Source of the DNA: an uncultured Bacteroidales bacterium
GTDB lineage: Bacteria; Bacteroidota; Bacteroidia; Bacteroidales; JAKIYJ01
Length of the DNA: 63,737 nt
Reading direction: 5' to 3'
Assembly: GCA_964504265.1 (NCBI GenBank)
Contig: CAZDEU010000004.1
Location: forward strand, 1 to 63,737
This document shows, piece after piece, positions 8,945 to 49,476 of this stretch. The notes under the pieces are model-generated. The model did no database searches, was not told where the DNA came from, and saw only the letters and a program-made list of their open reading frames with translations. A program made the translations under genes and the position numbers. Within the stretch, counting starts at the first letter, position 1; the number at the start of each line of letters is the position of its first letter.

Positions 8945-8953
8945 GCAAAGTTA
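8945..8953 (-). promoter_or_regulatory. Candidate -7 promoter element (TAACTTTGC) upstream of GT4
   Basis: Exact TAnnTTTG(C) match 16 nt before the start, in the asnB-GT4 gap. Confidence 0.55.
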
Positions 8954-8962
8954 CAAAATCAA

Positions 8963-17164: not shown

Positions 17165-19096
17165 TTATTTGGTTTTTGAAAGTATAACATTATCTTTATA
17201 AGCAGCTTTTAGTAATTTAAGCATTTCGTTAAAAGTTTTCTGTTCGTTCAGGTTTAACATTATATAATTCAAAATCAGTGAATAATTATAAATTATTGAA
17301 TTGTTTTTATGTTCATATTTAATATCAAAACTGAATTTATCATTAAAAAAGCTGCTATTATCAGGAATATATTTTACTTCATAACCTAAAGGGATGTTAA
17401 GTTTATAACATAGTTGTAGCGATTTTTTGAAATCATTTTCAGAAGGCAACACCCGGTCGTCTTTAAAAAATTTAGAATTTTCGAGCGATTTATCAAGATT
17501 CATATTTATATATAAATCATTATCATTTTTTTTGATATAGCTACCCAGTTCAAAATCGTATATATATAACATTTCAGCATCATTATTTTGAACAGAATAA
17601 TTATTCAGCAAATATTTATTACTTCCCTTTCGTGTTAAAAAGCTAATGTAATTTTTAACAGCCTCTTCGTTATTAGCAGCATCAATAGTTCGCTTACTGT
17701 CGCAATCGAAATAACCTTTTAAAATTACTTTTCCTGAGCCTTTCAGTAAATTATTTTCTATTGTAAGATTAACAGTATCGTTAAACAAATTAACTTCTGC
17801 GTCAACAATAGGGACAGTTTCAATAGAAAAATTTTCTTCATTACTTATTAATACTTCTTTACCCTGGATAAATTCGGTAGGCATACCAAAGCTGATATAA
17901 GAATCGGTTGCATCAAGAAAAATATATTGATTATTAGATTTGTTTTTATGTACAGCAATCATATGATTATCGACACAAGGCGAGGGTACGTCGTTATATT
18001 TATAAGGTAGCTTGCGAGAACCAACCCAAGCAGGGTGAGCATCAATGCCGAGCATTTCGAGCATAGTTACAATTAAAGTTGACATATCTTTGCAGTCGCC
18101 ATATCTGCTATGCATAATTTTATCAGGGTTTCTGGGAGTAAAACCTCCGAGTCCTTCAACAATAGCAATGTATTTAATATTTTTCTGAACCCATGAAAAA
18201 ACTTTTTTTACTTTAATAATTTCATCATCATTTTTGTCAATAATTTGGTCAAGAATGCTTTTAATTTCTTCAGTATTTTCGGTTTTAACTTTTTTTAGAA
18301 GGGAATAATACCAGTGATAAAGATCCGACACATTGCTCATTACATTTACTTTTTTGCCATCTTTTTTAGTATACGATTTAATGCTAACTATAATGTGAGG
18401 AACGTAATAAAGAGGGTCGGGAGCTCCATCTTCTTCTTTGTATGGTTCAATATTATTTAGTTTCCAGCTATATGTTGTTTCTTTTTTAGAAATGTTTTTA
18501 GTAAAATCAATGTTGTTTTCCAACATATTAACATAAATGTAATTAAGGTCAATATTATTATCGGCTGTTATTTTCAATTCACTTTTCAAAATGGGTGTAA
18601 GACCACCGAAAAAGAAAATTATAGGAAGCTGAGGATAATTATATTTTAGAGTAAAAGACTTAAAACTTATACTTCCTTTTTTGAGATTTTCATATTCAAA
18701 AGAAGTAGTAGTAATGTCTTCATAAAATATTGAATTACTAATATTTTGTTTTTTATCAAAATGTTTGACTATATATTTTTTATATTTATTTTTATCAGGA
18801 ATTTCAGCTAAAGTATAAGCACTTATATCGGTCATTTCTCTCAATTTGGAGTTTTCAATACTGTGTTTATAGTAAGCTGCACTTCTGTCGGATGTATAAT
18901 ATATAGTATTTTCATTTTTATGAATAAATTCTAAAGTATCTTTTTTAAATTTCAAAGAAGTAGCATCAAATTTATTAAGAATAACAAAGTCTTTGTCAGG
19001 ATATTTTTCGGCAAGATGTATATTATCAGATGGTTTTTGTCCATTTAAAGATAAGCACAGCCATATAGTTAAACAAAAAATTACAAAATATTTCAT
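17165..19096 (-). CDS. DUF3857 + transglutaminase-like domain exported protein
   Basis: WVQKNIKYIA, RYGDCKDM (Cys), DNHMI (His), FLDAT (Asp) triad; ATGA overlap with upstream gene. Confidence 0.85.
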   Translation of the reverse strand: MKYFVIFCLTIWLCLSLNGQKPSDNIHLAEKYPDKDFVILNKFDATSLKFKKDTLEFIHKNENTIYYTSDRSAAYYKHSIENSKLREMTDISAYTLAEIPDKNKYKKYIVKHFDKKQNISNSIFYEDITTTSFEYENLKKGSISFKSFTLKYNYPQLPIIFFFGGLTPILKSELKITADNNIDLNYIYVNMLENNIDFTKNISKKETTYSWKLNNIEPYKEEDGAPDPLYYVPHIIVSIKSYTKKDGKKVNVMSNVSDLYHWYYSLLKKVKTENTEEIKSILDQIIDKNDDEIIKVKKVFSWVQKNIKYIAIVEGLGGFTPRNPDKIMHSRYGDCKDMSTLIVTMLEMLGIDAHPAWVGSRKLPYKYNDVPSPCVDNHMIAVHKNKSNNQYIFLDATDSYISFGMPTEFIQGKEVLISNEENFSIETVPIVDAEVNLFNDTVNLTIENNLLKGSGKVILKGYFDCDSKRTIDAANNEEAVKNYISFLTRKGSNKYLLNNYSVQNNDAEMLYIYDFELGSYIKKNDNDLYINMNLDKSLENSKFFKDDRVLPSENDFKKSLQLCYKLNIPLGYEVKYIPDNSSFFNDKFSFDIKYEHKNNSIIYNYSLILNYIMLNLNEQKTFNEMLKLLKAAYKDNVILSKTK

Positions 19097-22000
19097 TTTT
19101 CAATTTCAATTATTTCATTGTTAAAATAAATCCATTTGTTTATAAGATTGCCTTTAGCCGAATAAATTGTTCTTTTGCCGTATTTTTCGCCTGTTTTGTA
19201 TATACAAATTTCATTAAGTTTACCATTTTGAAAATATTTTTTATAAACTCCATCAATATAACCGTTAACATAAACGCATTCTTCTCTTATATTGCCGTTA
19301 GTATAATAAGTTTTAAAAGGTCCTGTTGCCCAATCGTTAATATATTCTTGTTCATATTCTAAATTACCGTTTTCGTAGTATTTTAAATATTTACCTTCTA
19401 ACCATCCGTTTTTAAGAGTAAAAGACCTTGCGAGTTTACCATTGTTCCAGAAAATAAGTATTTCGCCTGTTTCGTTGTTAATATTTTTAGTAATAGTTTT
19501 GTTAGATTTTTTATAAGAGTACGAAACAAACACACCATCAACATATATACGCGAATGGTCGTTTTTGCCATCAATATAATACAGTGCTTCACCGTGTAAA
19601 TTGTCATCCTTATAGTAAGCTTTGCGTTTAATTTTACCATCATTGTCATATAAAACATAAGCGCCGTGTTTTTTGTCGTTTTTATAATTTATTTTATAAT
19701 CTAAAGAACCGTCGTAATTATAATATATCCATTCGCCTGTTTTTTCACCATATTCATAATTTCCTTCAAATCTTTTCTCTCCATTAGCATAAAAGCCTTT
19801 CCATAGTCCGTGTTCTTCATCGTTAAACATTTCACCAGATGATGCAATATTACCGTCGGGGTAATAATAAGTTTTATTCCCATGATAAATATTATTAAAC
19901 ACTTCGGCTTTCAAAAATATTGGGCATTGTTCACAAAATTTGATTTCAACTGTTCTTTTTCCGGGTGTTTCAAAAACTGTATCGAGTGGCATGCCTGCAG
20001 TATCGTAATAAATAGTAAATTTCAGAAGGTCTTTTTCAAAAAATTGTGCTGAGCTAAGTTTACCTAAAACATTATAAATATAGCTGAAACCTTCGTTTTC
20101 GCCATTAATATAAAACATTTTTTTGTTTAAAGAGCCGTTTCTGTAGTAGTATTCCCACGGGCCATCAACGTTTCCGTTGTTTATATAACCTTGAGCGTAA
20201 AGGTTTCCATTTCTGTAAAAATCCTGATAATAACCGTTAGAATTTCCATTTTCGTCGAACAAATATGTTGTTTCGGTTTTACCATTGGGATATAATTTTT
20301 TGAATTCACCAACGATTAAATCATCTTTGTACTCGTAGATGTCGGTTAGGCAAGCATTGGTTTCGTAATATTTCCATTTTCCGTTCTTACCTTTTTTATT
20401 ATATTGACCTTCGACTGAAATATTTCCATTTTCGTAGTAAGCTTTATACTTTAGGTTGCCACTTTTTCTTTTATCTTCCGAAATAATTTTTCCATCTTTA
20501 TCATAAAAACTATATTCAGTCAATTCACCGTTTTTGTAAACATGTTCGGAGATTTTCCAACCATCTTCGCTAAAAGAAACAGAAGTTCCATTTTCTTTAC
20601 CTGTTTCATCAAAATTTTCAACAGCATCTGTTTTACCATTTTCGAAGTAATACATAATTTCGCCAACTTTATTATCTTTTAAATATTTACCTTTGCTTTT
20701 AATTTGACCGTTTTCATAATATGTTGTAAAAGGGCCTTCAAGAAGACCGTTTTTATACGTGCTTTCTTCGCTAATTTGCCCGTTTCTGTAGTAAACTTTA
20801 TTTAGACCTTCAAGTTCGCCATTTAAATAATTTCGTTTAATTTCAATTTCACCCGAATCAAAATATTTAGTATACTCGCCTTCACCTTTTCCATTTACAA
20901 AAGGATATTCTGATTTAAGAGTTCCAATAGGATAAAAGTATCTGTATTTTCCGTTTTTAATTTCACCATCAGTAAAAGTTGTAATATAGTCGAGAATACC
21001 ATTAGTATAAATATTAGCATCACCATTGAGTTTATAATTTTTATAGAACGTAGCGAATCGGAGTAGTCCATTATCTAAATACACATAACTGGAGTCGATA
21101 TATTCGCCTTTATCAAAATAGCTTATTTCTTTAAGATTGCCGTTAGGATAATAGTATTTCCATTTACCAGTTTGTTTTCCATCGTTATCGTAATTGCCTT
21201 CGGAGTATTTTCTACCTGATAGGTCGTAATATTTAACAGAGCCTGTCAGAATATTTAAAGTAGAATTATAATCAAAATCTCCAAAAATATACACATAAAA
21301 ATTATTACTTCTTTTAATTCTGCCTTTTCCAAAATCGCCAAAATCGACTTCAATAAGATCGTTTCTGTTATAAATATTTTTAATAGCCCATATTCTAAAA
21401 TCTTCGGCAGCTTTATAATTTTTTTTAACAATTTTAGCTAATTTTTCATTTCTAATATGTTTAGAGATATAATATGAATACCCTGCAAATTTTTTATTTT
21501 TATTTAAATCAATGTAAAAATTCACATAATTATTGTGCCATATATTATTTTCGTCAACATCAATTTGGTTGAGCTGATCAAATACCAAAGCACTTTGTTT
21601 TACAAAGGGGTATGATAATTTGCTTTTCACTTTGTATTTTTTTTCTAAAGCAATATAATTATGAATCAGTTGGTCGATAAAAGAAAATTCTTGGTTGCCT
21701 TCAAGTTCGAGTTTGTTGCTTCCTTTAAAATCTTCCTCTGTCCAGTATTTAGAGCGTGAAATAATGTCAGCATAGCTTAACTGGTCAAAATTATCCCGTT
21801 TTTCGCCCGATAAAATGAGGTACATGCCAAAAGCCATAATAGCTTTTGTAGTTTGCTTTTCGTTAACAGCATATAATCCGAGGCTATGATGCACTCTGTC
21901 GTAAAGAGGATTTACTAATAAAGTTTTTTTGAAAATGTCGTAAGCTTTTTTGTGCTTGCCCGCAAGCGATAATGAAACACCATAATTATACCAAAGCGAA

Positions 22001-22407
22001 TAATTCATAGGAAATTCTTTTAATATTTCGGAGTACATATTCTGAGCCTTATCGTATTCTTCAATTTCATCAAGCGAAGAGCCGTAAAGCAAATAAAATT
22101 CGGTAGGTAGTTTATGTCTGAAGTTCCAGTATTTATCGCCTAGTTCAATTACATTATCATAATCGTTATTATAGAAATAAGCAATCATTTTCTCAGGCAG
22201 TGCATATTTAAAAAATAAAGAATCGCCTTCATAAATTTGTTCAAACAGTTTAATAGCTTCGTCTGTTTCTCCTTTACCTCGTAAATCTACTGCTTTTATT
22301 AAAATATCATAAGAAGCTGAGTAATTTAACTTTTCCTGAGAGTAAATTTCAATTTTTATTGTTGTTAATACCAATAATAAAAAAAAAGTAAAGATTTTGT
22401 TATTCAT
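19093..22407 (-). CDS. Exported TPR + MORN-variant repeat protein
   Basis: Signal peptide; TPR-like helices (LWYNYGVSLSLAGK); many G.W..YY.NG / EG.Y..G repeats over the C-terminal two thirds. Confidence 0.8.
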   Translation of the reverse strand: MNNKIFTFFLLLVLTTIKIEIYSQEKLNYSASYDILIKAVDLRGKGETDEAIKLFEQIYEGDSLFFKYALPEKMIAYFYNNDYDNVIELGDKYWNFRHKLPTEFYLLYGSSLDEIEEYDKAQNMYSEILKEFPMNYSLWYNYGVSLSLAGKHKKAYDIFKKTLLVNPLYDRVHHSLGLYAVNEKQTTKAIMAFGMYLILSGEKRDNFDQLSYADIISRSKYWTEEDFKGSNKLELEGNQEFSFIDQLIHNYIALEKKYKVKSKLSYPFVKQSALVFDQLNQIDVDENNIWHNNYVNFYIDLNKNKKFAGYSYYISKHIRNEKLAKIVKKNYKAAEDFRIWAIKNIYNRNDLIEVDFGDFGKGRIKRSNNFYVYIFGDFDYNSTLNILTGSVKYYDLSGRKYSEGNYDNDGKQTGKWKYYYPNGNLKEISYFDKGEYIDSSYVYLDNGLLRFATFYKNYKLNGDANIYTNGILDYITTFTDGEIKNGKYRYFYPIGTLKSEYPFVNGKGEGEYTKYFDSGEIEIKRNYLNGELEGLNKVYYRNGQISEESTYKNGLLEGPFTTYYENGQIKSKGKYLKDNKVGEIMYYFENGKTDAVENFDETGKENGTSVSFSEDGWKISEHVYKNGELTEYSFYDKDGKIISEDKRKSGNLKYKAYYENGNISVEGQYNKKGKNGKWKYYETNACLTDIYEYKDDLIVGEFKKLYPNGKTETTYLFDENGNSNGYYQDFYRNGNLYAQGYINNGNVDGPWEYYYRNGSLNKKMFYINGENEGFSYIYNVLGKLSSAQFFEKDLLKFTIYYDTAGMPLDTVFETPGKRTVEIKFCEQCPIFLKAEVFNNIYHGNKTYYYPDGNIASSGEMFNDEEHGLWKGFYANGEKRFEGNYEYGEKTGEWIYYNYDGSLDYKINYKNDKKHGAYVLYDNDGKIKRKAYYKDDNLHGEALYYIDGKNDHSRIYVDGVFVSYSYKKSNKTITKNINNETGEILIFWNNGKLARSFTLKNGWLEGKYLKYYENGNLEYEQEYINDWATGPFKTYYTNGNIREECVYVNGYIDGVYKKYFQNGKLNEICIYKTGEKYGKRTIYSAKGNLINKWIYFNNEIIEIEK

Positions 22408-25099: not shown

Positions 25100-27235
25100 T
25101 TAATTTTCAGGAATTTCATTAATATTTTCTTCAGGAACATCATTAGTATTTTCTTCAGGATTTACAGTTCCACTTTTAATAATTTCAATTTCAGTTTGTT
25201 TGCCAGGTTCAATTTCAGTACTTGGTACGTAGTCATCTCTAAGAATTTTAAAAGTAGTACGTCTGTTTAATTGGTGAGCGGCTTCTTTTTCATCGTTAGA
25301 TGATAAAGTAGCAATAAAATCGTCTGTAATAAGAGCACCTTTTTTAAAATAATATGGTTTTCCGTTATAAACAACAGTTTTATCAGTTTCAAGTTCACGA
25401 GGTACATCTTCGCCATATCCTTTTGCTACCATTCTGTCAGCAGCAATACCTTTAGAAATTAAATAATCAACAACCGATTGTGCTCTTTTTTGAGAAAGGT
25501 CATAATTATATTCATCAGAAGCACGAGTATCGGTATGAGAACCTAATTCAACCACAATGTTTTCGTTAGTAATAAGAGTTTCATAAAGACCATTTAAAGA
25601 ATCTCTGAATTGGGGTTTAAGATCCCATTTAGCAAGGTCATAAAGTATTTCAGGAAGGACAATAGGTTTTATTGGTATAGGGGCTAAAACAAAATCAAGG
25701 ACTAAGTCGGTACTTTTTGTAAGTCCAACTGTAGTTTCAGTGCCTCTGTCGCCAAAATATCCATCTTTTTTTACAGTTAGAACATAAGAAGTATTTTCAA
25801 TTATCTGAGATTTGTCAAAGCTATAAGCGCCAGTAGAGTTAGTAGTATCAACATAAGAAGACCCATCAGAGCCTGTACAAGTAACAACTGCACCCGGTAA
25901 TATTTTTGATGAACTTTCGTCAGTAACTTTACCTGCAAGAGTAAAAATCAGAGGAGGTCTTATGAAATAATAAATGTCATCATTACCTCTACCACCTTTG
26001 CGGTTCGATGACAAATAACCTTCTTCTTTATTACCTAAGAAAATTATTGCAAAATCGTCAGCTTCTGAATTAATAGGGTATTTCATATTTTCGGGGGTAC
26101 CCCAGCTCTCACCTGTTTTTGTAACTTTAAAAATGTCGAGTCCTCCCATACCAATATGGCCATTAGATGAAAAATATAAAGTATTTTCATCTCTCAAATA
26201 AGGATACATTTCATCTTCGGGTGTATTAATTGTTGGACCTAAGTTTTCGGGTTTGCCCCATGCTTTAGATTTAGATGTTCTTTTAATAACCCAAATGTCT
26301 TTACCGCCTTGTCCACCCGACATATTAGAAGAAAAATAAAGTTCAAGTTCGTTAGAGCTTAACGAAGGATGCCCAACAGTAAAACTATCAGGAGCTATTT
26401 CAATAAGTTGAGGTTCGCTCCAGCCTCTCCCTTTTTTCTTTGCTTCGTAAATTTGACAGCCCAATTGTTTTTTTCTTTCAACAAGACAACGAGTAAAATA
26501 AATTACATTAGCTTTATCGTTTAAAATTGCAGCACCTTCATTAACAGGAGAATTAATATTATCTTCATCTAAAAGAGTTGGTGAACTCCAAGTACCAGCT
26601 CTTGATTGAGAAGTAATCCATATATCTGTAAAATTTTCACCGGTCCAATCATCAGAACGATTACCGGTAGAACCGGCTCTATTAGAAGTAAACATCAGCG
26701 CCTTAAATTTCTTGTCGGCCCAGGCAGTTGCAAAATCACTTTCGCGTGTATTGAATTTTTTTTCATTTAAAACTTCGTATCTCGTTGGGCTATCAATCCA
26801 TTTTTGAGCCAGAGCCGAAGACTCAGCCCCTCTGCTACCTCTTGGGTCAGAAGGTGCTTTTTTTGCGTATTCATTATATTGAATAATGGCATCAGGGTAT
26901 TTTCCGTTTGCTTTAAGAGCATCGGCGTAATACAATATAGCAATAGGGTCAGGATAATTTGTCCTGACTACTCTTTTATAACTGTTTTCAGCATTTTTAA
27001 AATCACCTTTCATTCTATGGCATTCAGCTATCATGAAAAGCAACCTTGCTTTTTCAGTTCTGTTACTTTTTACTTTGCTGTAAGCTTTTTTGTACAAGTC
27101 AATTGCCAGCGAATACTGGTTAAGTTTAAAAGCATCATCGGCTTCCTGAGCATAGTTTTTAGGCTGAGAATATGCAGAAACAGTCATCATCAGCACAACC
27201 ATAATGCAACTTACTATAGTACGACCAATTTTCAT
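25100..27235 (-). CDS. PorE-like TPR-PD40-CRD-OmpA peptidoglycan-binding protein
   Basis: TPRs, PD40 propeller repeats (GHPSLS, LYFSS.GH.GMGGLDIF), carboxypeptidase-regulatory-like domain, OmpA C (SHTD.R, LSQKRAQSV, NRRT). Confidence 0.85.
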   Translation of the reverse strand: MKIGRTIVSCIMVVLMMTVSAYSQPKNYAQEADDAFKLNQYSLAIDLYKKAYSKVKSNRTEKARLLFMIAECHRMKGDFKNAENSYKRVVRTNYPDPIAILYYADALKANGKYPDAIIQYNEYAKKAPSDPRGSRGAESSALAQKWIDSPTRYEVLNEKKFNTRESDFATAWADKKFKALMFTSNRAGSTGNRSDDWTGENFTDIWITSQSRAGTWSSPTLLDEDNINSPVNEGAAILNDKANVIYFTRCLVERKKQLGCQIYEAKKKGRGWSEPQLIEIAPDSFTVGHPSLSSNELELYFSSNMSGGQGGKDIWVIKRTSKSKAWGKPENLGPTINTPEDEMYPYLRDENTLYFSSNGHIGMGGLDIFKVTKTGESWGTPENMKYPINSEADDFAIIFLGNKEEGYLSSNRKGGRGNDDIYYFIRPPLIFTLAGKVTDESSSKILPGAVVTCTGSDGSSYVDTTNSTGAYSFDKSQIIENTSYVLTVKKDGYFGDRGTETTVGLTKSTDLVLDFVLAPIPIKPIVLPEILYDLAKWDLKPQFRDSLNGLYETLITNENIVVELGSHTDTRASDEYNYDLSQKRAQSVVDYLISKGIAADRMVAKGYGEDVPRELETDKTVVYNGKPYYFKKGALITDDFIATLSSNDEKEAAHQLNRRTTFKILRDDYVPSTEIEPGKQTEIEIIKSGTVNPEENTNDVPEENINEIPEN

Positions 27236-27684: not shown

Positions 27685-27843
27685 ATGTTTTTTTTCAATT
27701 AAAAAACTTATGCAAATAATATTTTACGTTATAATTATTATCAAAGTTACAAAATTAGCATTATAAACAACACTAAGTATTTAATTTGAAAATAAAAAAA
27801 GCTGTAAAAAAATTACAGCTCATATAATATATAAAATATAATA

Positions 27844-29748
27844 TTAATTTTTTATTAGCTTAAATTGTTGTAAAGAATTACCAATCATTACATTAATTAA
27901 ATATACCCCTGATAACAAATTTGAAATATCAATTTTAATATTTTCATTTCCACTTTGTAAAATATCTAAAACTTTATTGCCAGCCATATCGTTTATCTGA
28001 ACCTTAACAGAGCCATTAAATCCCTGAGCATTTACAAATATATGGTTTTGAGCAGGGTTAGGGAATATTTTAACTTCAAAATTTTCCGAAAAAATATAAT
28101 TTACAGCTATTATATTAAAATATTCAAAATTTCCATCGTAATCTGTTTGTTTAATTCTGTAATATTGAATTCCATCAGCGGGTTTATCATCAATATAATT
28201 ATATTGAATAACTTTATTACTATTACCATTTCCGTTAATTTTAGCTATTGTTTCCCAATTATTAAGATTATCAGTTGATTTTTCTAAAGCAAAATAATCG
28301 TTGTTTGTTTCGGAAGCTGTAATCCATTCAATAAAAATTGTTTTTTCTTGTTGGTGTCCGTTGAATGATAATAGTGTAATAGGTAAGGGGGATGGTTCGT
28401 TTATGCCATCTTGTAGTAATTTAATATGATTTGAGCTTATATTACTATTTGTTGAGCTATAAATATTATTTGCAACTAAAAAATAAGTTTTTTCTGGTTC
28501 AAAAATATTTTTTGCTAAAGAAGAATTATTTTTAGAAAATTTTTCAAAATGCAAAATAACTATGTTATCGTTAGGTGCAGCCTTTAAAACAGCAGATTCA
28601 AAATATGCAACTATTGCACCATCACTATCTTCAAGATGGTAATTAGAGGCTTTTTGAGCAGAATCAGGATTTAGTGCTAAATTAAAAACCAGAATAATAT
28701 TATTATTATTAATATCATAAGATATTGAAATAATATAAGGGTGATTAGTATTAACAAGATTTTCACCTGACACATCTCCAATAACGTTTATAGTGTTTCC
28801 ATCTTCAAATGTTAAATTTGCATTATCGTCAACATTTAAATCATTATAGATAATTATATTTGCTTCAGAAGTTACTGTGGAATTACTATCAATTATTAAA
28901 TTATAAAATTCCAAAACATTAACACCACCTCCGGCAACAAGAGTAATATTAGAATTAGTAAAAATAATTGTACTTTGATCAAAATCAAATGTTGCATCAT
29001 TATCAATTTGCCAAAATTCACCTGCAATAACAAATTCGCTATTACCAGCTTTAACAGAACCGCTTCCTGTTGCTATAAAATTGCCTTTAACATAAAAGTT
29101 AGCTGAATCTAATTGCAAATCGGCCGAGCCAGTAATCTCAACATCTCCAAAAACATTAATACTCGAATTACTTACATCTAATTTACCACTTCCAAAAAAT
29201 AAAACATTTCCATAAATGTTAATTTCACCATTATTTGATGTAATTGTGTTATTGCCGGCAAGTTTGAAAGTGGACGTTGAATTGCCAATATTTATTGTAC
29301 CATTATCATTGATAATAGTTCCTCCACCTGTAAAATTAAAATCACTAATAAAATTTAAGGCGCCATTTGAAATTAAAATATTACCACCTGAATTAACACT
29401 GCAATAAACATTTAATCTTCCGTTGCCAATATCCAAAACAGCATCATTACCTATCTTAATATTATCTAGAACATTGACAATAATGCTATCATTTATTTTA
29501 AGTTTGTTAGGATTAGGGTTCATCTGTAATTTAGCAAAAGTTGTATTAATATCAATTACAGGCTGATGTACTTCTGAAGACAGCCATGGAATTACAACAT
29601 CTTTAGTAGAATCAGGCACGCCATTGCTCCAGTTATTAGGGTTAGACCATAATTCATTGGAAATTCCCGTCCATGTGGTTGATTGTGAATTTAGTGATAC
29701 AGGAATAATGAAAAGAAAAAAAATAAGTGTTTTATTTAAAAGGTTCAT
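27844..29748 (-). CDS. T9SS type A cargo protein (beta-helix-like repeats, Ig-like domain)
   Basis: Signal peptide; WTG....W..P.NW..GVP N-terminus; G/N/I-rich repeats; PLPITLLSF; CTD KIFPNPA...SGVYLI...FKLIKN. Confidence 0.85.
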   Translation of the reverse strand: MNLLNKTLIFFLFIIPVSLNSQSTTWTGISNELWSNPNNWSNGVPDSTKDVVIPWLSSEVHQPVIDINTTFAKLQMNPNPNKLKINDSIIVNVLDNIKIGNDAVLDIGNGRLNVYCSVNSGGNILISNGALNFISDFNFTGGGTIINDNGTINIGNSTSTFKLAGNNTITSNNGEINIYGNVLFFGSGKLDVSNSSINVFGDVEITGSADLQLDSANFYVKGNFIATGSGSVKAGNSEFVIAGEFWQIDNDATFDFDQSTIIFTNSNITLVAGGGVNVLEFYNLIIDSNSTVTSEANIIIYNDLNVDDNANLTFEDGNTINVIGDVSGENLVNTNHPYIISISYDINNNNIILVFNLALNPDSAQKASNYHLEDSDGAIVAYFESAVLKAAPNDNIVILHFEKFSKNNSSLAKNIFEPEKTYFLVANNIYSSTNSNISSNHIKLLQDGINEPSPLPITLLSFNGHQQEKTIFIEWITASETNNDYFALEKSTDNLNNWETIAKINGNGNSNKVIQYNYIDDKPADGIQYYRIKQTDYDGNFEYFNIIAVNYIFSENFEVKIFPNPAQNHIFVNAQGFNGSVKVQINDMAGNKVLDILQSGNENIKIDISNLLSGVYLINVMIGNSLQQFKLIKN

Positions 29749-29888
29749 AATCTATTTATTACATTCGTGGTTTTACATACAAACATATATATTATTAAAT
29801 ATATTGTATTAAAAAATAAAAAAAAATCATTTTTAAAACAATGAATCTCAATAATATATAAAATTTTAAGAGGGGAATCAAAACTTAT

Positions 29889-29897
29889 GCAAAGATA
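29889..29897 (-). promoter_or_regulatory. Candidate -7 promoter element (TATCTTTGC) upstream of the T9SS cargo gene
   Basis: Exact TAnnTTTG(C) match in the 615-bp intergenic region. Confidence 0.5.
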
Positions 29898-30082
29898 AAA
29901 AGAAAATTTAAATTAACAATGTAACCTAAGTATAATATTTATTTTTATTCCAAATGCCAAATTAATATAAAATATTATATATATTTGATATTTAATTTGT
30001 TAACCTAATTTTTGCCATAATTTAACAAATAATATTATTTTTAAAAAATTAAGTATTTCCCCTTATGATACCTTTAAAATTT

Positions 30083-30099
30083 TGTCCCAATAATGGACA
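30083..30099. promoter_or_regulatory. Palindrome TGTCC-N7-GGACA, candidate activator-binding site
   Basis: Perfect 5-bp arms; 12/17 identical to the site at 34224-34240. Confidence 0.45.
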
Positions 30100-30363
30100 C
30101 TAAATTTTTATTATTTGCATATCAATATTTTACATTAGTAAAAAAATATACTATTTTAAAAAAATTTTGTATATAATCCAAATTAGATAAAAATTGGATG
30201 TAATAATATATGGTTTATTAATAAAATGAATGATTTATGTAACAAATATATAAATTATTAAATCAGAATGCCATTTTAGCTATATATAACATAAAATTAC
30301 CTAATAATTTTCAAGAAAAATAAACAAATAAAAAGGAATAAAGCTGCGTTAAAAATAAAAATA

Positions 30364-30915
30364 CTAGTTATAAGCTACTATAACATCAAAAGTTCCTGTA
30401 TAAAGCCCGTAAGGTTGATTGACATCAACAGAAAGAGTAGCACCTACATCAATACTAGATTGACCTAATGAGTTAAGTACGGTACTGCTACCAACATTAG
30501 AAATAAAATTATCAATTAACATTGAATTACTGCCAGAATTGATAATTGCAGATGCAGGAAGAATAATACTGATTGAAGCGTTAGGGTGTCCTGTAATTGA
30601 AAAGTTAGCTGCAGTATGAGTACCGCTGTTTATAAGTGAAACGCCACCTGTACTAGTACGGTTACCATTAGCTGCAACTACAACAGTACCTGTAGAAGAT
30701 GTACCTGCTGCAATATCACCAAAATCTAAATCAGCAATTTTATTTATTTGTATTGGTTGGACAATATTAGCAGTAACGTAAGGAACAGCAACTTGCTGAA
30801 TACCTGGGCTAGGACTTGGTGCGCCACCAGGGCCGCTAGGTCCTTGAGACATGCTTATTTTGGGCAATGCCCAAATAAACAAACCAATTAATATATAAAT
30901 TATATTCCTAAGCAT
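30364..30915 (-). CDS. DUF4402-type pilin-like protein with Pro/Gly-rich N-terminus
   Basis: Signal peptide; TANIVQPIQINKIADLDFGDIAAGT; C-terminal GLYTGTFDVIVAYN. Confidence 0.8.
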   Translation of the reverse strand: MLRNIIYILIGLFIWALPKISMSQGPSGPGGAPSPSPGIQQVAVPYVTANIVQPIQINKIADLDFGDIAAGTSSTGTVVVAANGNRTSTGGVSLINSGTHTAANFSITGHPNASISIILPASAIINSGSNSMLIDNFISNVGSSTVLNSLGQSSIDVGATLSVDVNQPYGLYTGTFDVIVAYN

Positions 30916-30919
30916 TTTT

Positions 30920-33451
30920 CTAATCTGATACTACAAATTTAATAAATAATTTTTGATTTTCCAAATTTATTTTGGAAAAATATACACCTTTTGATAAAAA
31001 ATTTAAATTATTTTTGGCATCATTGGAGCTAAAGACCATTGCTCCTGAGGTTGAGAAGACATCAACCGAAATTAAATTTTCATCTTTTGGTATATTTACT
31101 GTTAAAACATTATCGTAAAAATAAGCTTTAGCAGATACATTATCTGTATTATCCGCAATATTATTGTTTAATGACATATCAATTATCATAAACCTGTTTG
31201 AAATATCTTCAGGATTTGCATAAAAAGAATATGGCTCATTTTTATTAATAATAATATCTTTTATTTTGTCTACTACAACAATATCCCTTTCCGAAATATT
31301 ATCAGTAAATTCTAAAACGTAATTACCTTCTACGTCAACATCAAAATGAATGAAAAGATTATTAATATTACTTAAATCATTAATACAATGTATAGCAGTT
31401 TCGGTATAATCTTTAATTGAATACAACTGAGGAGCTTCACTTATACCAAATAATTTTGCAGCATCGTAGTTATGATCATAAGTGTTAAGAGCATTTTCAT
31501 TAAACATAACAATATGTTCATCGGAATAATTATTTCCATTTACTGTAAGCTTAATATATTGATTATTATTGTTTTTAAAAGAAATTTGTTCGGCAACCTG
31601 AGCTTGCGAATTTATTTGAATATTAGCTGTTTGTGAAGTTGCTTGTACAAAGAACCCTTGCCCTGACGCAATGTAGCGGCTTCCGCCGTTTGTTCCCATA
31701 CTACCATTCCATGTAGCATATTGAAAACCGTTCCAAACATATATTGTGCTACCAATATTGTTTTTAACCCAGCCTTGCGATAAATTCCAGTCAATAGGAG
31801 CAGGGTATGGGTTGCCAATTAGGTTCCAACCTGTCATTCCTGAAGAAAATCCAGTAAGGGTTAAATTAATAGCAGGTAAAGTACCTGAATTTATAATACC
31901 TTTAAAATTAACTGTGGTATCATAATCAGCCCACACTGCATAGCCTTGTCCTATAGGCATAGGTAATACGCCAATTGTAATATAATTACCAAAATCATTT
32001 ATTGATTCATCATAAGGTTTTAACCATAAACCATAAAAGGTATTTGTAATTGCATTTGAAATAGGAGAAGTAACCAAATGCCAGTTATTTTCAGATAAAT
32101 ATCTTTCAACATTTTCAAAGCCATTGCCTAAGCGATTACCTTTAATAATAAGAGTAGCATCGCCTATATCAGAAGATTTTACAGTAATAATACCTTCATT
32201 ATAAAGGTTATTATTAACAATAAGAGCCATTTCTGGATTTATTGTAATTTTAGCACCTAAACTAAGTGAAATATTTTTACATTCAGCAGGATTTGAAAGT
32301 ATTTCATTTATAATTAATTCATTATTATAATAGTTATAATGGGGAATTATAACGCTATCAGCAGAATTTGGAACTAAGTTGATATCCCAATTAGCTGGTT
32401 CGTTCCATTCGCTGTTAACAGAGCCTGTCCACACGCAAGTTTTTTCGACAGGACCTTGCTGCCATCTTAGAATAGGAAATCCATTGTTGACAAGAGGATC
32501 AATTGTCCAGATATTAGAGAAGTCCCAACCTAAATTAGTAAAAGTAGATTGAGTTTGCATTTGCAGTGTATTGATGCCAATTCCTAAGGGTGATGTACTT
32601 TGCATATCGGTGTTCCAAAAAGTGTTGGCAATAATCCCGACGTGTCCTTGTCCTGCAACACCTCCTTTACCTGAAGATGTACCTTGAAAAATTACAGAAG
32701 CAGTATAACAATTTACTATATCGTTATAAGTAGAATCCCAAGCTGAGCCAACAAAACCACCAGTTCCCCAACCACCTTTTACATTACAAACCGAATAGCA
32801 ATTATCGGTATACGAAAATGCAGTTACATAGCCAATTAGTCCACCAGTGCTTCCTCCCCCATCAACACTTCCAGTAGCGAAGCATTTTGAAACTTTAGAA
32901 ATTTTACCCCATTGACCCAATAAAATTCCAACAAGTGAACCAGTATTGCTAGCACCTCTAATGTCAACATTAGTTAAGCCAAGATTTTTTACAGAACCAC
33001 CGAGTGCAATTCTTCCAAAAAACCCTATATTACTTGTTGAAGTTCTTTTAATGAATAAATTTGAAATTATATGTCCTTGCCCGTCATACGAACCAGTAAA
33101 AGGAGTTGTATTATTACCAATAGGTGACCAACCACTACCATTATCCCATGAGGATGTAGTAGAAGCATCAATATCAGTAGTTTGAATAAAATATTTATCC
33201 CATTGGTTTGGATTTTGGCTTAGCCATTGTAGTTCACTTAGTGAAGAAATTTGATAAGGGTCATTAATAGTACCACTGCCAATAGGAATAGTTTTAATAT
33301 CGTTAAAATCTAAATTTCCAAATATCGCTTCTGTATTAGAAGCGTTATTAGGTTTATAATTTGTATAAAAATTATTATTAGAAGAATGTAAAATTGCAGT
33401 TGATAAATAAATTAAGAGAAATAGAAAAATATGTTTATTAACCGATTTCAT
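30920..33451 (-). CDS. T9SS type A cargo protein with GLUG-motif domain
   Basis: GSGT..DPYQI, W.PIG....FTG.YDG.GH, repeated GGL.G/TGSLVG GLUG units, GWNLIGNPYP domain, CTD-like end (SKGVYF.KI). Confidence 0.82.
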   Translation of the reverse strand: MKSVNKHIFLFLLIYLSTAILHSSNNNFYTNYKPNNASNTEAIFGNLDFNDIKTIPIGSGTINDPYQISSLSELQWLSQNPNQWDKYFIQTTDIDASTTSSWDNGSGWSPIGNNTTPFTGSYDGQGHIISNLFIKRTSTSNIGFFGRIALGGSVKNLGLTNVDIRGASNTGSLVGILLGQWGKISKVSKCFATGSVDGGGSTGGLIGYVTAFSYTDNCYSVCNVKGGWGTGGFVGSAWDSTYNDIVNCYTASVIFQGTSSGKGGVAGQGHVGIIANTFWNTDMQSTSPLGIGINTLQMQTQSTFTNLGWDFSNIWTIDPLVNNGFPILRWQQGPVEKTCVWTGSVNSEWNEPANWDINLVPNSADSVIIPHYNYYNNELIINEILSNPAECKNISLSLGAKITINPEMALIVNNNLYNEGIITVKSSDIGDATLIIKGNRLGNGFENVERYLSENNWHLVTSPISNAITNTFYGLWLKPYDESINDFGNYITIGVLPMPIGQGYAVWADYDTTVNFKGIINSGTLPAINLTLTGFSSGMTGWNLIGNPYPAPIDWNLSQGWVKNNIGSTIYVWNGFQYATWNGSMGTNGGSRYIASGQGFFVQATSQTANIQINSQAQVAEQISFKNNNNQYIKLTVNGNNYSDEHIVMFNENALNTYDHNYDAAKLFGISEAPQLYSIKDYTETAIHCINDLSNINNLFIHFDVDVEGNYVLEFTDNISERDIVVVDKIKDIIINKNEPYSFYANPEDISNRFMIIDMSLNNNIADNTDNVSAKAYFYDNVLTVNIPKDENLISVDVFSTSGAMVFSSNDAKNNLNFLSKGVYFSKINLENQKLFIKFVVSD

Positions 33452-33496
33452 TTTCTTCTTTGAATTTTAATAATTTTTATAATTTTTTTTTGATTA

Positions 33497-33543
33497 ACAA
33501 TAAAGATAGATGCAAAAAGGTAATCAGCATCTATCTTTATTGT
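33497..33543. terminator. 17-bp perfect stem-loop immediately 3' of the putative major pilin gene
   Basis: ACAATAAAGATAGATGC / GCATCTATCTTTATTGT with 13-nt loop; terminator or mRNA-stabilising hairpin. Confidence 0.8.
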
Positions 33544-33554
33544 AAAATTAAATT

Positions 33555-34064
33555 TTAATTATAAGCAACAGTTACATCAAAGGTGCCGATGTATAAACCA
33601 GGTGTTTGGTTAGCATCAACATGTAAGTCTGCACCTACGTTTAAATCAGCTTCACCAAGTGCGTCAAGAGTGCCAGCAGCACCAAGGCTTGATACAAAAT
33701 TATCTACTGTCATGTCATCAGAACCTGATGAAATGATAATAGATGTAGGTAAAGCAATTGAAAAAGTAGCATTGGCATACCCTTGAATTTCAAAGTTTGC
33801 TTCGTTACCATCGTTTGTAGCAATAAGAGTAGCGCCACCAGTGCTAGTACGGTTACCTGTTGTAGCATCAATAGTTACTGTTCCAATTGCAGTTCCAGCA
33901 GCTATATCGCCAAAATCAAGATCAACAATTTTGTTAATCTGTAAAGGTTGTACAATGTTAGCTGTTGCATTTGCTGTTTCAGTTGCAGATGATGTTTGAG
34001 CTTTTAATTGATTTGTAAAAGCAATCATTAATAGTCCAGCAAAAATTAAAATTGTTTTTTTCAT
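33555..34064 (-). CDS. DUF4402-type pilin-like protein (putative major subunit)
   Basis: Signal peptide LKA|Q; alternating N-terminal strand ATETANATANIV; LDFGDI; C-terminal GLYIGTFDVTVAYN; own promoter and 3' hairpin. Confidence 0.82.
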   Translation of the reverse strand: MKKTILIFAGLLMIAFTNQLKAQTSSATETANATANIVQPLQINKIVDLDFGDIAAGTAIGTVTIDATTGNRTSTGGATLIATNDGNEANFEIQGYANATFSIALPTSIIISSGSDDMTVDNFVSSLGAAGTLDALGEADLNVGADLHVDANQTPGLYIGTFDVTVAYN

Positions 34065-34115
34065 GATAAATAAAAGTTTAATTAATAATTATTTTGTTTT
34101 GTTTGAACCGTACTT

Positions 34116-34132
34116 TTCAATACTTATGCCAA
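34116..34132 (-). promoter_or_regulatory. Sigma54 -24/-12 promoter (TTGGCATAAGTATTGAA)
   Basis: TGGCA-N6-TTG spacing as in the RpoN consensus (GA rather than GC at -12), 51 nt before the pilin start. Confidence 0.7.
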
Positions 34133-34158
34133 AAAAAATTAAATATTATTTTTCTGAA

Positions 34159-34171
34159 AATCAATATGTTG
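34159..34171 (+). promoter_or_regulatory. IHF-type binding site (AATCAATATGTTG)
   Basis: Exact match to WATCAANNNNTTR, located between the sigma54 promoter and the candidate UAS. Confidence 0.5.
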
Positions 34172-34213
34172 AAAAAATATATATTTATTATGATTTTCAA
34201 TATTTATTCAAAT

Positions 34214-34240
34214 TGGGAAAAATTGTCCCATTATGAAACA
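34214..34240. promoter_or_regulatory. Candidate upstream activator sequence(s)
   Basis: Overlapping TGGGA-N7-TCCCA (34214-34230) and TGT-N11-ACA (34224-34240), about 80-110 bp upstream of the -24 element. Confidence 0.5.
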
Positions 34241-34250
34241 AGACAAATGC

Positions 34251-36833
34251 TTATTTGTCATTTTTTCTTTTGAAAACAAAATTAATATCGCTAATAAAAT
34301 CTCCTTCGTAAGAATCATTAATATAAATTTCCTGATTTATATTAGATGTATAATAATTCAAATTATTTAACTGCGTAATATCTAACGATATATTATGTTT
34401 GCCTGGCGATAACCCCAAATAATTATAATATCCATTCTTATCTGTTAAACATTTATGTACTAAAACTTCTTTATTATTATAAATATTTACAATAATACGG
34501 GGAGCGGGTTTTTGTTTACCTTTTTCATCTTCAATTATTATTTGCCCCTCAATTTCACCCATTGGTTTAACCGGTACATATATTTTTTTAATCTGATTAG
34601 GTTCAGGATAAACTGCTATAGTTTCGTAATCAAGCATCCACGCAATACTTTTAAATCCTGCATTTTTAACAGAAACAATATATTTTGTATATGGTTCTAA
34701 AGAAACAAACCTGTGAACTGTATCATTATTATACATTACTCTAATACCCTTACTAATGCCAACCGATGCGTCTGCTACTAACTCTTCGTCGGGTTGTCTG
34801 ATACTATCGTGATTAATATCAAGAAATACCATTACATCTATAATACCTTTACCAACATTATAACGGTTAGTAGGGCATACAGGCTGAACTGCATTACTAA
34901 ATATTAAACTTCCCGAAAAAGATTGATTGCTGAACCAATTTTTTTTATTCAGACCGAAACTAAATGAACTTCTTAACGCATTAAGGTCTATATAGGCATT
35001 TGCCATAAACATAGTTGACTTTTCAGGAAAATTATGGTTACACGAAATACTGGCAAAAACATTTTTATTAAATCTTTTTTGTGCTTGTAACCTGATGTTA
35101 GATAATGAAGATTTTTTTAAATCAGCAAACGAATAGGCATAAATACTCCACTGATTAGGCAAAAAAACAGACGCATTTAGTCCCGCTGTAATAACATCAA
35201 CATTTTTGAACGACATTGCCGAAATCATCCCAAGATTAAAACGCCGGTATACCAACGATAGATTAGATTCATAAATATGTATTCCACCTACAATAGTGTT
35301 ATTATATCTATATGTATTTTTAAAATATCCTTTAACTTTTTTAAAAGAAAGAGGAATATTAGTGCTTAGCATAGCTTCACATTTGTTTTTAGTTAAAACA
35401 GCATCCTGCTTATGGTCATATAGCTTATAATCACTTTCGATAGAAAAATTATTTTTCATTCTGTACATTAAAGATGCCTGTTGAAAAGCTTTATCAATAT
35501 AAGAATAACTAAAGATAGTATTATTAAAAGGTATAACCGAAGCCCTTACAAAAGGTAAATATCTGCTATACTTATTGCGTTCGAAGGTTTCGTAGCCTGC
35601 ACTAATAGTAGCTCTTCTGTTTATTCCATACGAAAAAATTCCATGTGCAAATCTATAAGCAAGGCTATCAAATGTAAAACCTGAGTATATCTGATATTCT
35701 AGTTTGTTTTTAGGAACAAAAATAAAAGGTATATTAATAACATATTCTTCAATTTTTTCTTCGCCCCAGGGCCCATAGTGTTTAAGAATAATAGTTGAAT
35801 TACCATAAACAAGCGGAATTTCAAATTTATATTGTCCGTTAACATCGGCAGTAGTAAAATCTAACAAAACATTATTAACATAAAGCTCAATTTCCCAGCC
35901 TGGCTTGGATTCCTTTTGCAGAACAAAAGTCCCATACGATTTTCTGAACGTAGTAGGAGTATTCGATAGTTTGGCACCCAACAAGCTAGTCGTAACCTGC
36001 GAAAGAAGAGGAATATTGATAACACCAATATCAACCTGACGCAAATATTTTCTATCATTATCTACAAAATACCAGTTAGCAGCTTGATTATACATTTGAA
36101 TATTTTCAGAATTATCTAATTTGGTTTTTATATTTAGTTCGCCTCCTAATAGCTCTGAGCCTAAATTAGTTTTCATAGAATAAGACGGCATACTTTCTTC
36201 AATTTGTTTCATACTTAAATTCCAATCAACTACAGCACCGCTTAATATTTTATGTTTTCTGTAGAACACAGTATCAACAGGCATATCACCAGTTAAAGAC
36301 ATTAAATTTTCACGAATTTTCTCAATTCTTAATAATTTTACTACAGGTAATTCTACGTCAGAGTGTAAAAATACAGTTAAAGAACGAAAATCAAATTTCA
36401 TTTTAAAACCGAACAAATATTCATAAATAAGAATAGGCATAAACAAATCGTTATATGTTTTAATGTACTGTTTGTTAGTTGCCTGATACATTTTATCTCT
36501 GAAAACAAACTTTTTAGTTATAGTATTAATTTTATAAAAATTTTGTTCGTTGCCAATATATCCCCATACAGAGTCAATTTCCATTGAATGGGCAACAAAT
36601 ATTTTTAACAGGTTAAACATGCCAATAACAGGCATATATACCTGATTATCATAATATATTGCATCAATATTAAAATAACCTAAATTTTCGACCGAAAGCT
36701 TTACATAAAACTCGTCATAATAATCTTCATTATTTTCAAAATATACATTGTTTTGTGCTTTAGAGTTAAATATGCCAATAAAAGAAACTACAGAAAAAAC
36801 TATAAAATAAATACAAATTTTTGCTTCTTTCAT
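34251..36833 (-). CDS. Usher-like outer-membrane protein with C-terminal SdrD-B/carboxypeptidase-regulatory-like domains
   Basis: Signal peptide SKA|Q; 860 aa; beta-strand-rich; plug-like segment ELYVNNVLL...G.YKFEIPL.YG...I.LK.YGPWGE; VFLDIN.D..RQPDE; TD.NGYY...L.PG. Confidence 0.68.
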   Translation of the reverse strand: MKEAKICIYFIVFSVVSFIGIFNSKAQNNVYFENNEDYYDEFYVKLSVENLGYFNIDAIYYDNQVYMPVIGMFNLLKIFVAHSMEIDSVWGYIGNEQNFYKINTITKKFVFRDKMYQATNKQYIKTYNDLFMPILIYEYLFGFKMKFDFRSLTVFLHSDVELPVVKLLRIEKIRENLMSLTGDMPVDTVFYRKHKILSGAVVDWNLSMKQIEESMPSYSMKTNLGSELLGGELNIKTKLDNSENIQMYNQAANWYFVDNDRKYLRQVDIGVINIPLLSQVTTSLLGAKLSNTPTTFRKSYGTFVLQKESKPGWEIELYVNNVLLDFTTADVNGQYKFEIPLVYGNSTIILKHYGPWGEEKIEEYVINIPFIFVPKNKLEYQIYSGFTFDSLAYRFAHGIFSYGINRRATISAGYETFERNKYSRYLPFVRASVIPFNNTIFSYSYIDKAFQQASLMYRMKNNFSIESDYKLYDHKQDAVLTKNKCEAMLSTNIPLSFKKVKGYFKNTYRYNNTIVGGIHIYESNLSLVYRRFNLGMISAMSFKNVDVITAGLNASVFLPNQWSIYAYSFADLKKSSLSNIRLQAQKRFNKNVFASISCNHNFPEKSTMFMANAYIDLNALRSSFSFGLNKKNWFSNQSFSGSLIFSNAVQPVCPTNRYNVGKGIIDVMVFLDINHDSIRQPDEELVADASVGISKGIRVMYNNDTVHRFVSLEPYTKYIVSVKNAGFKSIAWMLDYETIAVYPEPNQIKKIYVPVKPMGEIEGQIIIEDEKGKQKPAPRIIVNIYNNKEVLVHKCLTDKNGYYNYLGLSPGKHNISLDITQLNNLNYYTSNINQEIYINDSYEGDFISDINFVFKRKNDK

Positions 36834-36907
36834 CAGAAATAATTTTTTTATAATTACACCTTATTATATAGCACAATAAAAATTTGTATTAATAATAAAC
36901 AACATAT

Positions 36908-49256: not shown

Positions 49257-49476
49257 GTAATTAAAGAATTGATTATTAAAGGTATCATAATAAACTCGCA
49301 AGTTTTTAATCATTTCCATTTGTGTTTTTTCAAACATGCTCGTTTTAAAAAATCATATTTTAACAAACAGTTGATAATTCAATTATTAGATTTGTTATAA
49401 AAAAACAACAACTTACATGTAAAATACCAAAAACTTATCAACTATATGTTATATGGTGATGCGAGAATATAATACC

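Follow-up and report, generated by a model that had tools for sequence, protein, structure and literature searches.

Within a 63,737-nt stretch of DNA from an uncultured Bacteroidales bacterium (contig CAZDEU010000004.1, assembly GCA_964504265.1; hereafter the window, meaning the whole stretch), eight genes run head to tail on the minus strand at 27844–39777 in the open reading frame (ORF) listing. In order of transcription they encode a sigma54-dependent activator, a PapD-like chaperone, a minor DUF4402 pilin, a divergent usher, the major pilin P169, the protein T843, a second major-type pilin, P183, and the protein T634 (Table 1). T843 and T634 end in C-terminal domains (CTDs) of the T9SS (type IX secretion system) class, and T843 lies inside what is very probably a pilus operon. 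An earlier note on this DNA had placed the T843/T634 region correctly and left out the rest of the operon (34251–39777). Its description of the T843 gene as flanked by two pilin paralogs, with the stop 4 bp from the second pilin start, holds: P169 and P183 are both DUF4402 proteins, about 50–53% identical, and the T843/P183 junction reads ...GAT TAG AAAA ATG..., exactly 4 nt from stop to next ATG. The activator shows an AAA lid plus weak receiver and helix-turn-helix matches; the closest related loci have a 454–464-residue gene in its place, upstream of the chaperone.

For cross-locus comparison, we used a survey sample consisting of the window and 80 loci fetched around usher homologs (81 usher clusters; 995 ORFs). 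Pilins, chaperones, ushers, and CTDs were marked in the called ORFs of the 80 loci by hidden Markov models (HMMs) seeded from the window, and CTD counts are those of the first HMM, with TIGR04183 and Pfam serving as cross-checks. Another CTD HMM, which had canonical CTDs as its seed, was discarded: It drifted onto the C-terminal β-sandwich of the ushers and yielded no further true CTD genes.

The association of pilus and CTD genes is recurrent, contrary to the lack of linkage that the earlier note had named among the things that would refute its proposal of a hybrid appendage. A CTD gene lies on the operon strand in 40 of the 81 usher clusters, and CTD genes account for 42/328 in-cluster genes vs. 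9/667 flanking genes; many of the 80 loci are kin, so these linkage counts are not counts of independent events. With P for pilin, C for chaperone, T for the in-locus CTD protein, and U for usher, four gene orders occur—P-P-C-T-P-U, T-P..C-P-U, U-T, and the window's own U-P-T-P—of which P-P-C-T-P-U, found in many Bacteroidales, is the commonest. More than 20 loci show a 4-nt overlap between the T gene and the pilin gene that follows. At L081, which holds the closest T843 ortholog (60% identity), the order is likewise pilin-T-pilin, with T ending 2 nt before the second pilin.

Table 1. Features of the window and of surveyed loci, with coordinates local to each sequence
Sequence	Feature	Coordinates	Strand	Basis or remark
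Window	Sigma54-dependent response-regulator/activator, 447 aa, first gene of locus	38434–39777	-	Sigma54_activat E 4.5e-65
Window	PapD-like periplasmic pilus chaperone, 275 aa	37455–38282	-	AlphaFold model and Foldseek
Window	Minor "pre-usher" DUF4402 pilin, 177 aa	36908–37441	-	DUF4402 E 8.9e-17
Window	Divergent outer-membrane usher, 860 aa	34251–36833	-	AlphaFold model and Foldseek
Window	Sigma54-type promoter motif TGGCATAAGTATTGAA (TGGCAY-N5-TTGAA)	34116–34131	-	67 nt upstream of P169 ATG
Window	P169, major DUF4402 pilin, 169 aa	33555–34064	-	DUF4402 Pfam E 9e-34
Window	Strong attenuator-like hairpin between P169 and T843 genes	33497–33543	-	Folding energy vs. shuffles
Window	T843, CTD protein, 843 aa	30920–33451	-	CTD match, module homology
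Window	WTGSVNSEWNEPANWDINLVP motif (WTG), T843 residues 341–361, opens conserved module	32369–32431	-	Regular expression
Window	Conserved pre-CTD module, T843 residues 337–763, RemA/RemZ family	31163–32443	-	Profile A7
Window	NRF motif and variant type A CTD, T843 residues 764–843 (Pfam match 783–841)	30923–31162	-	Alignment A2
Window	4-nt spacer AAAA, T843 stop to P183 start	30916–30919	-	Junction sequence
Window	P183, major-type pilin paralog, 183 aa, Pro/Gly-rich N-terminal insert QGPSGPGGAPSPSPGIQQVAVPY	30364–30915	-	DUF4402 E 1.8e-32
Window	T634, second T9SS cargo, 634 aa, canonical type A CTD	27844–29748	-	Por_Secre_tail E 3.5e-12
Window	Terminator-like hairpin with T-run, closes gene row	27799–27821	-	
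Window	PorE-family protein (TPR / beta-propeller / OmpA)	25100–27235	-	554 bits, E 3.5e-166, just under cut-off 600
Window	BamA	45117–47612	-	
Window	PorG	48396–49337	-	195.8 bits, cut-off 130
Window	Second PorG-like gene	49477–50418	-	
L009	TGGCAY-N5-TTGAA sites	13791–13806; 18888–18903		
L010	TGGCAY-N5-TTGAA site	4442–4457		
L014	TGGCAY-N5-TTGAA site	13170–13185	-	
L015	TGGCAY-N5-TTGAA site	9898–9913		
L021	TGGCAY-N5-TTGAA site	1411–1426		
L082	PID-CTERM mini-protein	7706–7900		
L084	PID-CTERM mini-proteins	23–235; 4361–4573		
L087	PID-CTERM mini-proteins	7282–7491; 9753–9956; 13830–14051		
L089	PID-CTERM mini-protein	7781–7999		
L092	PID-CTERM mini-protein	8369–8590		
L093	PID-CTERM mini-protein	2394–2639		

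Chaperone, usher, and pilins

Predicted structures identify the machinery as chaperone-usher at the level of fold, in keeping with the earlier note's "chaperone-usher-like." The AlphaFold model of the chaperone (pLDDT 90.2), built like that of the usher on a homolog alignment, found CfaA, CsuC, Caf1M, FimC, and PapD as its best Foldseek matches in the PDB (E 5e-9 to 1e-6, probability 1.0; best E 4.6e-9), and its top 40 matches were almost all chaperone-usher chaperones. Its sequence gives a weak Pfam PapD_N match (E 1e-3), a domain detected at E ≤ 0.1 in 21 of 44 members of the chaperone family. The usher model (pLDDT 87) matched FimD and PapC over its full length (E 1.3e-26 to 5e-16); the next-best barrels, LptD and Occ porins, stood at about 1e-6, and the ushers scored up to twenty orders better. 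Pfam, NCBIfam, and PDB sequence searches returned no usher match for the 860-residue protein, whose only Pfam match is a C-terminal SdrD_B/CarboxypepD_reg sandwich. PDB sequence searches with the usher (A1), the chaperone (single, A3), and a pilin (single, A4) found no chaperone-usher component, so the kinship is seen by fold comparison only. We hold with high confidence that the locus is a chaperone-usher operon.

The three DUF4402 pilins all have Sec signals, ordinary ones that end in ..AQ and show by eye no lipobox Cys. They match Pfam DUF4402, not SCPU, and have no PDB sequence match by profile. A Gly 14 residues from the C terminus and a penultimate Tyr are both conserved, a pair that forms the classical signature by which chaperones recognize pilus subunits. 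Across loci the pilins fall into major and minor classes, with multiple paralogs per locus, and 38 of the 40 best BLAST relatives of the 177-residue pilin come from the pilin gene that directly precedes the usher gene at other loci. P183 stands apart through its N-terminal insert, QGPSGPGGAPSPSPG, which has a counterpart, QPNGPGGPPGNGPG, in the orthologous P184 of L081 and is lacking from other major-type pilins; it has the highest Pro+Gly density among 158 pilins. The pre-usher pilins that follow T in Bacteroidales begin Q-E-x-PPRP. All pilins in the locus are single-domain (169–183 residues), and its ORF list contains no two-domain tip adhesin, the absence that the earlier note had remarked on; the pilin HMM detects a DUF4402 domain in none of the T proteins.

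The system resembles the archaic Csu and alternate CFA/I (class 5) pili in its two-domain chaperone, which best matches CfaA and CsuC, its FimD/PapC-fold usher, its small Sec-exported pilins, and their C-terminal Gly-14 and penultimate Tyr. The window's order chaperone-pilin-usher-pilin also resembles cfaABCE, the order in CFA/I. Unlike these proteobacterial pili, the window proteins lack Pfam Usher, SCPU, Fimbrial, or PDB sequence matches, the pilins being DUF4402 proteins; the locus has no CsuE/CfaE-type two-domain tip adhesin and shows sigma54-type regulation; and the host phylum is Bacteroidota, with SPOR in many usher relatives. With respect to the archaic (sigma, Csu-type) subfamily, the chaperone has CsuC among its best matches but gives no separation of it from CfaA or Caf1M, and the matches listed for the usher are FimD and PapC. 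The pilins are unlike those of the type V (FimA/Mfa) pili: They are DUF4402 proteins accompanied by a chaperone and an usher, which leaves a functional analogy only.

The usher family comprises more than 915 proteins by protein search, with at least 595 confirmed relatives among GTDB species-representative genomes. Almost all are from Bacteroidota, and they are annotated as hypothetical or, for many that carry SPOR, as "FtsN." Most Bacteroidales relatives (P0034–P0120; loci L018–L080) are 1000–1470 residues long and include a SPOR (peptidoglycan-binding) domain, and the window's usher clade is 840–870 residues long and without SPOR; a peptidoglycan-tethered usher would be unusual. A further subgroup (L019, L033, L045, L048, L052, L060, L065, L069, L071, and L077) consists of usher and pilin only, the latter short (142–182 residues) and starting QVVVTGH.., and within 9 kb of them the chaperone, major pilin, and CTD genes are all missing.

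Transcription signals

Promoter motifs indicate that the operon is under sigma54-type control. With both strands of 1.4 Mb counted, the motif TGGCAY-N5-TTGAA has only 18 matches. In the window and five other loci, copies of it precede major-type pilin genes by 63–86 nt, and three more follow the usher at truncated contig ends (L008, L011, and L013). Its −12 element is TTGAA rather than TTGC, and a search for TGGCAC-N5-TTGCW with 2 mismatches allowed gave 35 matches vs. 21.7 expected in the window, barely above chance; the signal is convincing because the TTGAA form sits upstream of pilin genes across loci. It also fits the neighboring sigma54 activator gene.

RNA evidence comes from metatranscriptome assemblies of digesters and wastewater. 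In X26, contig depth over P169 was 48–92 vs. 0–7 over neighboring genes, a trend repeated in X27 and X28 that puts P169 at 10–20 times its neighbors; depth over the 177-residue pre-usher pilin was low. The X26 contig of depth 92 ends in Illumina adapter sequence at 34088, where the sigma54-type motif lies 28 nt upstream and the P169 ATG 24 nt downstream, and this end may be an RNA 5′ end.

Directly 3′ of P169, a hairpin with a 17-bp perfect stem and without a U-tract has a minimum free energy of −23.2 kcal/mol (z −6.4; 0/200 shuffles as stable). Abundant RNA contigs end at 33520–33597, i.e., at this hairpin, and none of the RNA contigs listed spans it at the P169–T843 junction. We take P169 to be the major subunit because its contig depth is high and the abundant contigs stop at the hairpin, which is probably an attenuator or RNA-stabilizing element that determines how much major pilin is made relative to the minor components. 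T843 and P183 occupy the place where classical operons put minor components. The earlier note had implied co-transcription of these two genes across 30915–30920; RNA contigs X29 (30694–30959) and X25 (30761–30985), an in silico equivalent of reverse-transcription PCR, do span the junction, although at low depth.

T843, T634, and the T9SS route

T843 is best read, from its sequence, as a modular RemA-family surface adhesin with a GLUG-type head. A Sec signal is followed by the head (about residues 58–330), the WTG motif, the conserved module, and the variant type A CTD. The succession of WTG motif, ~450-residue module, NRF motif, and type A CTD is common to T843-type in-operon proteins, and T843 residues 337–810 show homology (E 1e-13 to 1e-66) to the final ~600 residues of large CTD proteins encoded within usher loci of other genomes. 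WTG..W..P.NW..VP, a module that the earlier note had recognized in both cargos, occurs at residues 341–361 of T843 and 26–45 of T634. Across the survey, the regular expression hits 22 of 995 ORFs, and 22/22 are CTD proteins, an association far from chance; in in-operon proteins the motif always lies about 600 residues from the C terminus, and its region gives weak Amnionless-N matches in relatives.

The GLUG label given earlier survives in qualified form. GLUG (PF07581) is non-significant in T843 itself (E 1.9; 9.5 bits vs. 20.5). Among proteins homologous to the N-terminal third of T843, however, PF07581 is present in most, and the in-operon relative in L034 scores E 1.4e-15; by this homology the head appears to be a divergent GLUG type. 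The heads of in-operon T843 relatives differ—Gly_rich_2, GEVED, LamG, DUF2341, Ig, and GLUG—which suggests that T proteins combine a constant stalk with exchangeable heads.

The stalk module leads to the RemA/RemZ adhesin family of Flavobacterium johnsoniae. Profile A7, which covers the module without the CTD and includes T843 337–763, matched two chains in the PDB, RemA (8gl6_D, E 1.1e-37) and RemZ (8gl8_D, E 9.2e-28), and the links between T843 and the members of A7 have E 1e-13 to 1e-66. The matched regions are residues 982–1348 of RemA (Fjoh_0808) and 524–1025 of RemZ (Fjoh_0803). Both proteins share with T843 a type A CTD and variable N-terminal binding heads, a lectin in RemA vs. the GLUG-type head in T843. 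The remA gene is not known to be linked to chaperone-usher genes. RemA is described, where PMC10994853 cites Shrivastava 2012, as a mobile gliding adhesin with a lectin head. RemZ is a type A substrate trapped in the SprA translocon, and a single conserved Lys of it contacts PorV (PMC10994853). T843 retains, as K838, a near-invariant C-terminal Lys column, which we read as possibly the same position.

The C terminus of T843 has the NRF motif and then a type A CTD without the usual PNP start. Among 40 in-operon C termini, 38 match TIGR04183 at E ≤ 0.01, 26 match Por_Secre_tail, and 16 match NF033708. Homology to RemZ, together with the PorE and PorG genes in the window, points to export of T843 by Sec and then T9SS rather than by the usher, and we consider it very likely to be T9SS cargo. 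The T9SS core genes sprA, porV, and gldKLMN do not occur within the window; the PorE-family gene lies only about 600 bp downstream of T634. In L057 the in-operon CTD gene (about 5260–9316) appears as two ORFs of 729 and 576 residues, 129 bp apart, and may be frameshifted or split.

T634 bears out the earlier report of a second cargo in its clear type A CTD (TIGR04183 42.4 bits vs. cut-off 23; Pfam 46.9 vs. 27), which in the PDB matches the NucA CTD (8glk_D, E 1.4e-3), but not as a conserved member of the locus: It is absent from the closest orthologous locus, L081, where unrelated metabolic genes follow P-T-P. An AT-rich gap of 615 bp separates P183 from T634, which is probably a separate transcription unit; we infer a T9SS cargo with its own promoter region, an accessory neighbor rather than a core part. 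In L017 (734–4117) and L029 (1356–4736), the in-operon CTD proteins each have two WTG motifs, and the T634 passenger shows homology to their N-terminal half. These proteins resemble a T634-like N-terminal half fused to a T843-like C-terminal module, so that what the window encodes as two cargos corresponds to a single protein elsewhere.

Farther along the window, a gene at 19093–22407 (minus strand) encodes a 1104-residue secreted protein that has a TPR region at its N terminus and contains YxxNG-type repeats by the dozen. The protein weakly matches the LIC20035 adhesin family (E 8e-28, below cut-off).

Readings of the pilus–adhesin linkage

The explanation that we favor, and to which as a whole we give an even chance of being right, is that a sigma54-controlled operon makes a divergent, Bacteroidota-type chaperone-usher fiber together with its adhesin. 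The operon supplies the minor pre-usher pilin and the abundant major pilin P169; the attenuator-like hairpin and then the T843/P183 pair follow. T843 would use Sec to cross the inner membrane and T9SS to cross the outer one, would be held on the fiber by a pilin—P183 is the candidate holder in this genome—and would stand in for the two-domain tip adhesin that the locus lacks, so that pilus and adhesin act as one adhesive apparatus. Functional coupling of the fiber and T843 is likely; physical docking of T843 on the fiber we put forward only tentatively. A hybrid appendage with a T9SS adhesin, as the earlier note proposed, is plausible: The chaperone-usher folds, the lack of a tip adhesin, and the recurrent linkage speak for it, but the module is not pilus-specific and co-regulation remains a rival.

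An appendage of this kind would have a precedent, by analogy, in Mfa5. [quoted passage not shown] As proposed here, the fiber is built by one route and completed by a T9SS-targeted accessory or tip protein whose gene lies in the fimbrial operon. Unlike the window's chaperone-usher system, Mfa1 type V fimbriae use lipoprotein precursors and protease-triggered strand exchange without chaperone or usher, and Mfa5 has a von Willebrand factor domain where T843 has a RemA-type module. SprB offers another analogy in the pairing of an adhesin gene with a partner gene: It is a T9SS adhesin with a type B CTD, encoded beside a dedicated SprF/PorP-like partner needed for its display. It differs in that the T843 CTD is type A and the neighboring outer-membrane protein has the usher fold, not a PorP/SprF barrel. 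In the searchable literature we found no mention of DUF4402 and no description of this chaperone-usher family or its T9SS link.

Gene context of T843 homologs suggests what a holder might be. Among nine homologs checked, the closest alone lies in a pilus locus, and in 6 of the 8 non-pilus contexts one to three tiny genes (64–81 residues) stand directly beside the homolog. Their products have a signal peptide, a Pro/Gly-rich stretch, a PIDGG-type motif, a transmembrane helix, and a basic tail, and three are matched by Pfam PID_CTERM. A pattern scan found no such PID-CTERM mini-proteins in the 80 usher loci or the window. The Pro/Gly-rich N terminus of P183 resembles the mature N termini of the mini-proteins, e.g., QPGGPGGPPEPEDPPVG. 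This likeness, together with the position of the mini-proteins, would fit RemA-family adhesins that work with a neighboring holder. A stricter version, which we think rather unlikely, is that the family as a whole needs a dedicated holder offering a Pro/Gly-rich N-terminal peptide—in most genomes a PID-CTERM mini-protein or, in pilus loci, a pilin such as P183 here or the Q-E-x-PPRP pre-usher pilins in Bacteroidales—and that the result is a two-pathway organelle, a chaperone-usher fiber that bears, at its tip or as decoration, an interchangeable adhesin head delivered by the T9SS. Joining of T843 by PorU to the free N terminus of a tip pilin was set aside: By eye, the proteins appear to start with Gln once the signal is cleaved, and N-terminal Gln is usually cyclized in Bacteroidota, which would block the amine. 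The non-pilus contexts associate T9SS type A cargo genes with CTERM-sorting proteins, and L084 also has an exosortase-like gene.

The foremost rival, a real possibility although we put it below even, is that pilus and T9SS adhesins are co-transcribed only so as to appear together while T843 sits on the cell surface and never on the fiber; fibers might, for example, provide long-range attachment and RemA-like adhesins short-range binding or gliding. Much of what weighs against a fiber-bound T843 supports this account. Homologs without nearby pilus genes have T843's module and CTD, and the module is generic: A search with T843 residues 337–843 returned 10050 representative clusters at E ≤ 1e-3. 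Non-pilus homologs outscore T843 on the in-operon module profile (216–252 vs. 190 bits), which rules out the module as a marker of pilus-linked proteins, and no feature specialized for a pilus is apparent in the T843 sequence. RemA itself is a cell-surface gliding adhesin (PMC10994853). About half of the usher loci lack a nearby CTD gene, among them most of the window's usher clade (L004, L009, L014, and others) and the pilin-and-usher-only subgroup; the position of T in the operon varies, as does, between clades, the pilin subtype adjoining T. Also to be counted against the favored explanation are the marginal TIGR04183 score of the T843 CTD (23.4 bits vs. cut-off 23) and its Pfam Por_Secre_tail score of 21.5, below the gathering score of 27; a pairwise PDB search with T843 alone that found no relative, RemA and RemZ included; and the junction-spanning RNA contigs, of depth about 3, from a strain about 97% identical and possibly reflecting DNA carry-over. 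The likeness between P183 and the mini-proteins is low-complexity and possibly coincidental, drawn from a small sampling, and contact of T843 with any pilin is conjectural.

Simple co-regulation leaves unexplained, on the other side, the recurrent 4-nt overlap of T and pilin genes. Nor does it account for the persistence of T within the operon in at least four gene orders produced by rearrangement, for the either/or presence of a PID-CTERM mini-protein or pilins beside T homologs, or for the P183-specific N-terminal insert, conserved together with the T gene in L081.

An improbable alternative is that the machinery assembles DUF4402 protein into a surface coat or sheath instead of a pilus, much as archaic chaperone-usher systems do with spore coat protein U in Myxococcus, and that T proteins are co-assembled coat components. 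The best structural matches of the window's chaperone include the archaic CsuC class; sequence searches gave the DUF4402 pilins no relative of solved structure, and the SPOR domain in many usher relatives is unusual for pilus ushers. Against a coat stand the classical fiber-operon layout, with one pilin far more expressed and an attenuator after it, the multiple pilin paralogs in major and minor classes, and the lack of any sign of sporulation in these Bacteroidota.

Even less probable is export of T843 through the usher as a true tip adhesin, its CTD-like β-sandwich serving as a pilin domain and the T9SS likeness being incidental. Its position downstream of the major pilin and hairpin is that of classical minor or tip subunits, its CTD has a marginal score and no canonical PNP start, and no other tip adhesin gene is present. 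The TIGR04183 matches in 38/40 in-operon C termini argue against this, as do the many proteins with module and CTD but no nearby chaperone or usher, the membership of RemA and RemZ in the module family—RemZ having been caught in the T9SS translocon—and the failure of the pilin HMM to find DUF4402 in any T protein; T proteins of up to 3100 residues would, moreover, need to thread the usher pore. Chance or mobile insertion of both CTD genes beside the pilus operon is the least probable of all: The absence of T634 from L081 and the AT-rich 615-bp spacer before it would fit, but for T843 the idea is refuted by the enrichment of CTD genes (42/328 vs. 9/667) and the P-T-P order kept in L081, and the conserved T/pilin overlaps and the lack of a composition break also oppose it.

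Chaperone-usher pili are textbook organelles of Proteobacteria, and Bacteroidota are known for type V pili and T9SS. The usher family described here is widespread and unnamed, with at least 595 relatives in species-representative genomes, and sequence searches of Pfam, NCBIfam, and the PDB miss the usher. Should T9SS adhesins prove to be displayed on these fibers, this would be a second, independent case, after Mfa5, of a T9SS cargo completing the fiber of another route, and it would hint at how type A cargo such as RemA is retained at the surface. The variable heads on a constant stalk suggest exchangeable binding specificity, which would bear on how Bacteroidota of wastewater, digesters, and the gut attach and form biofilms.

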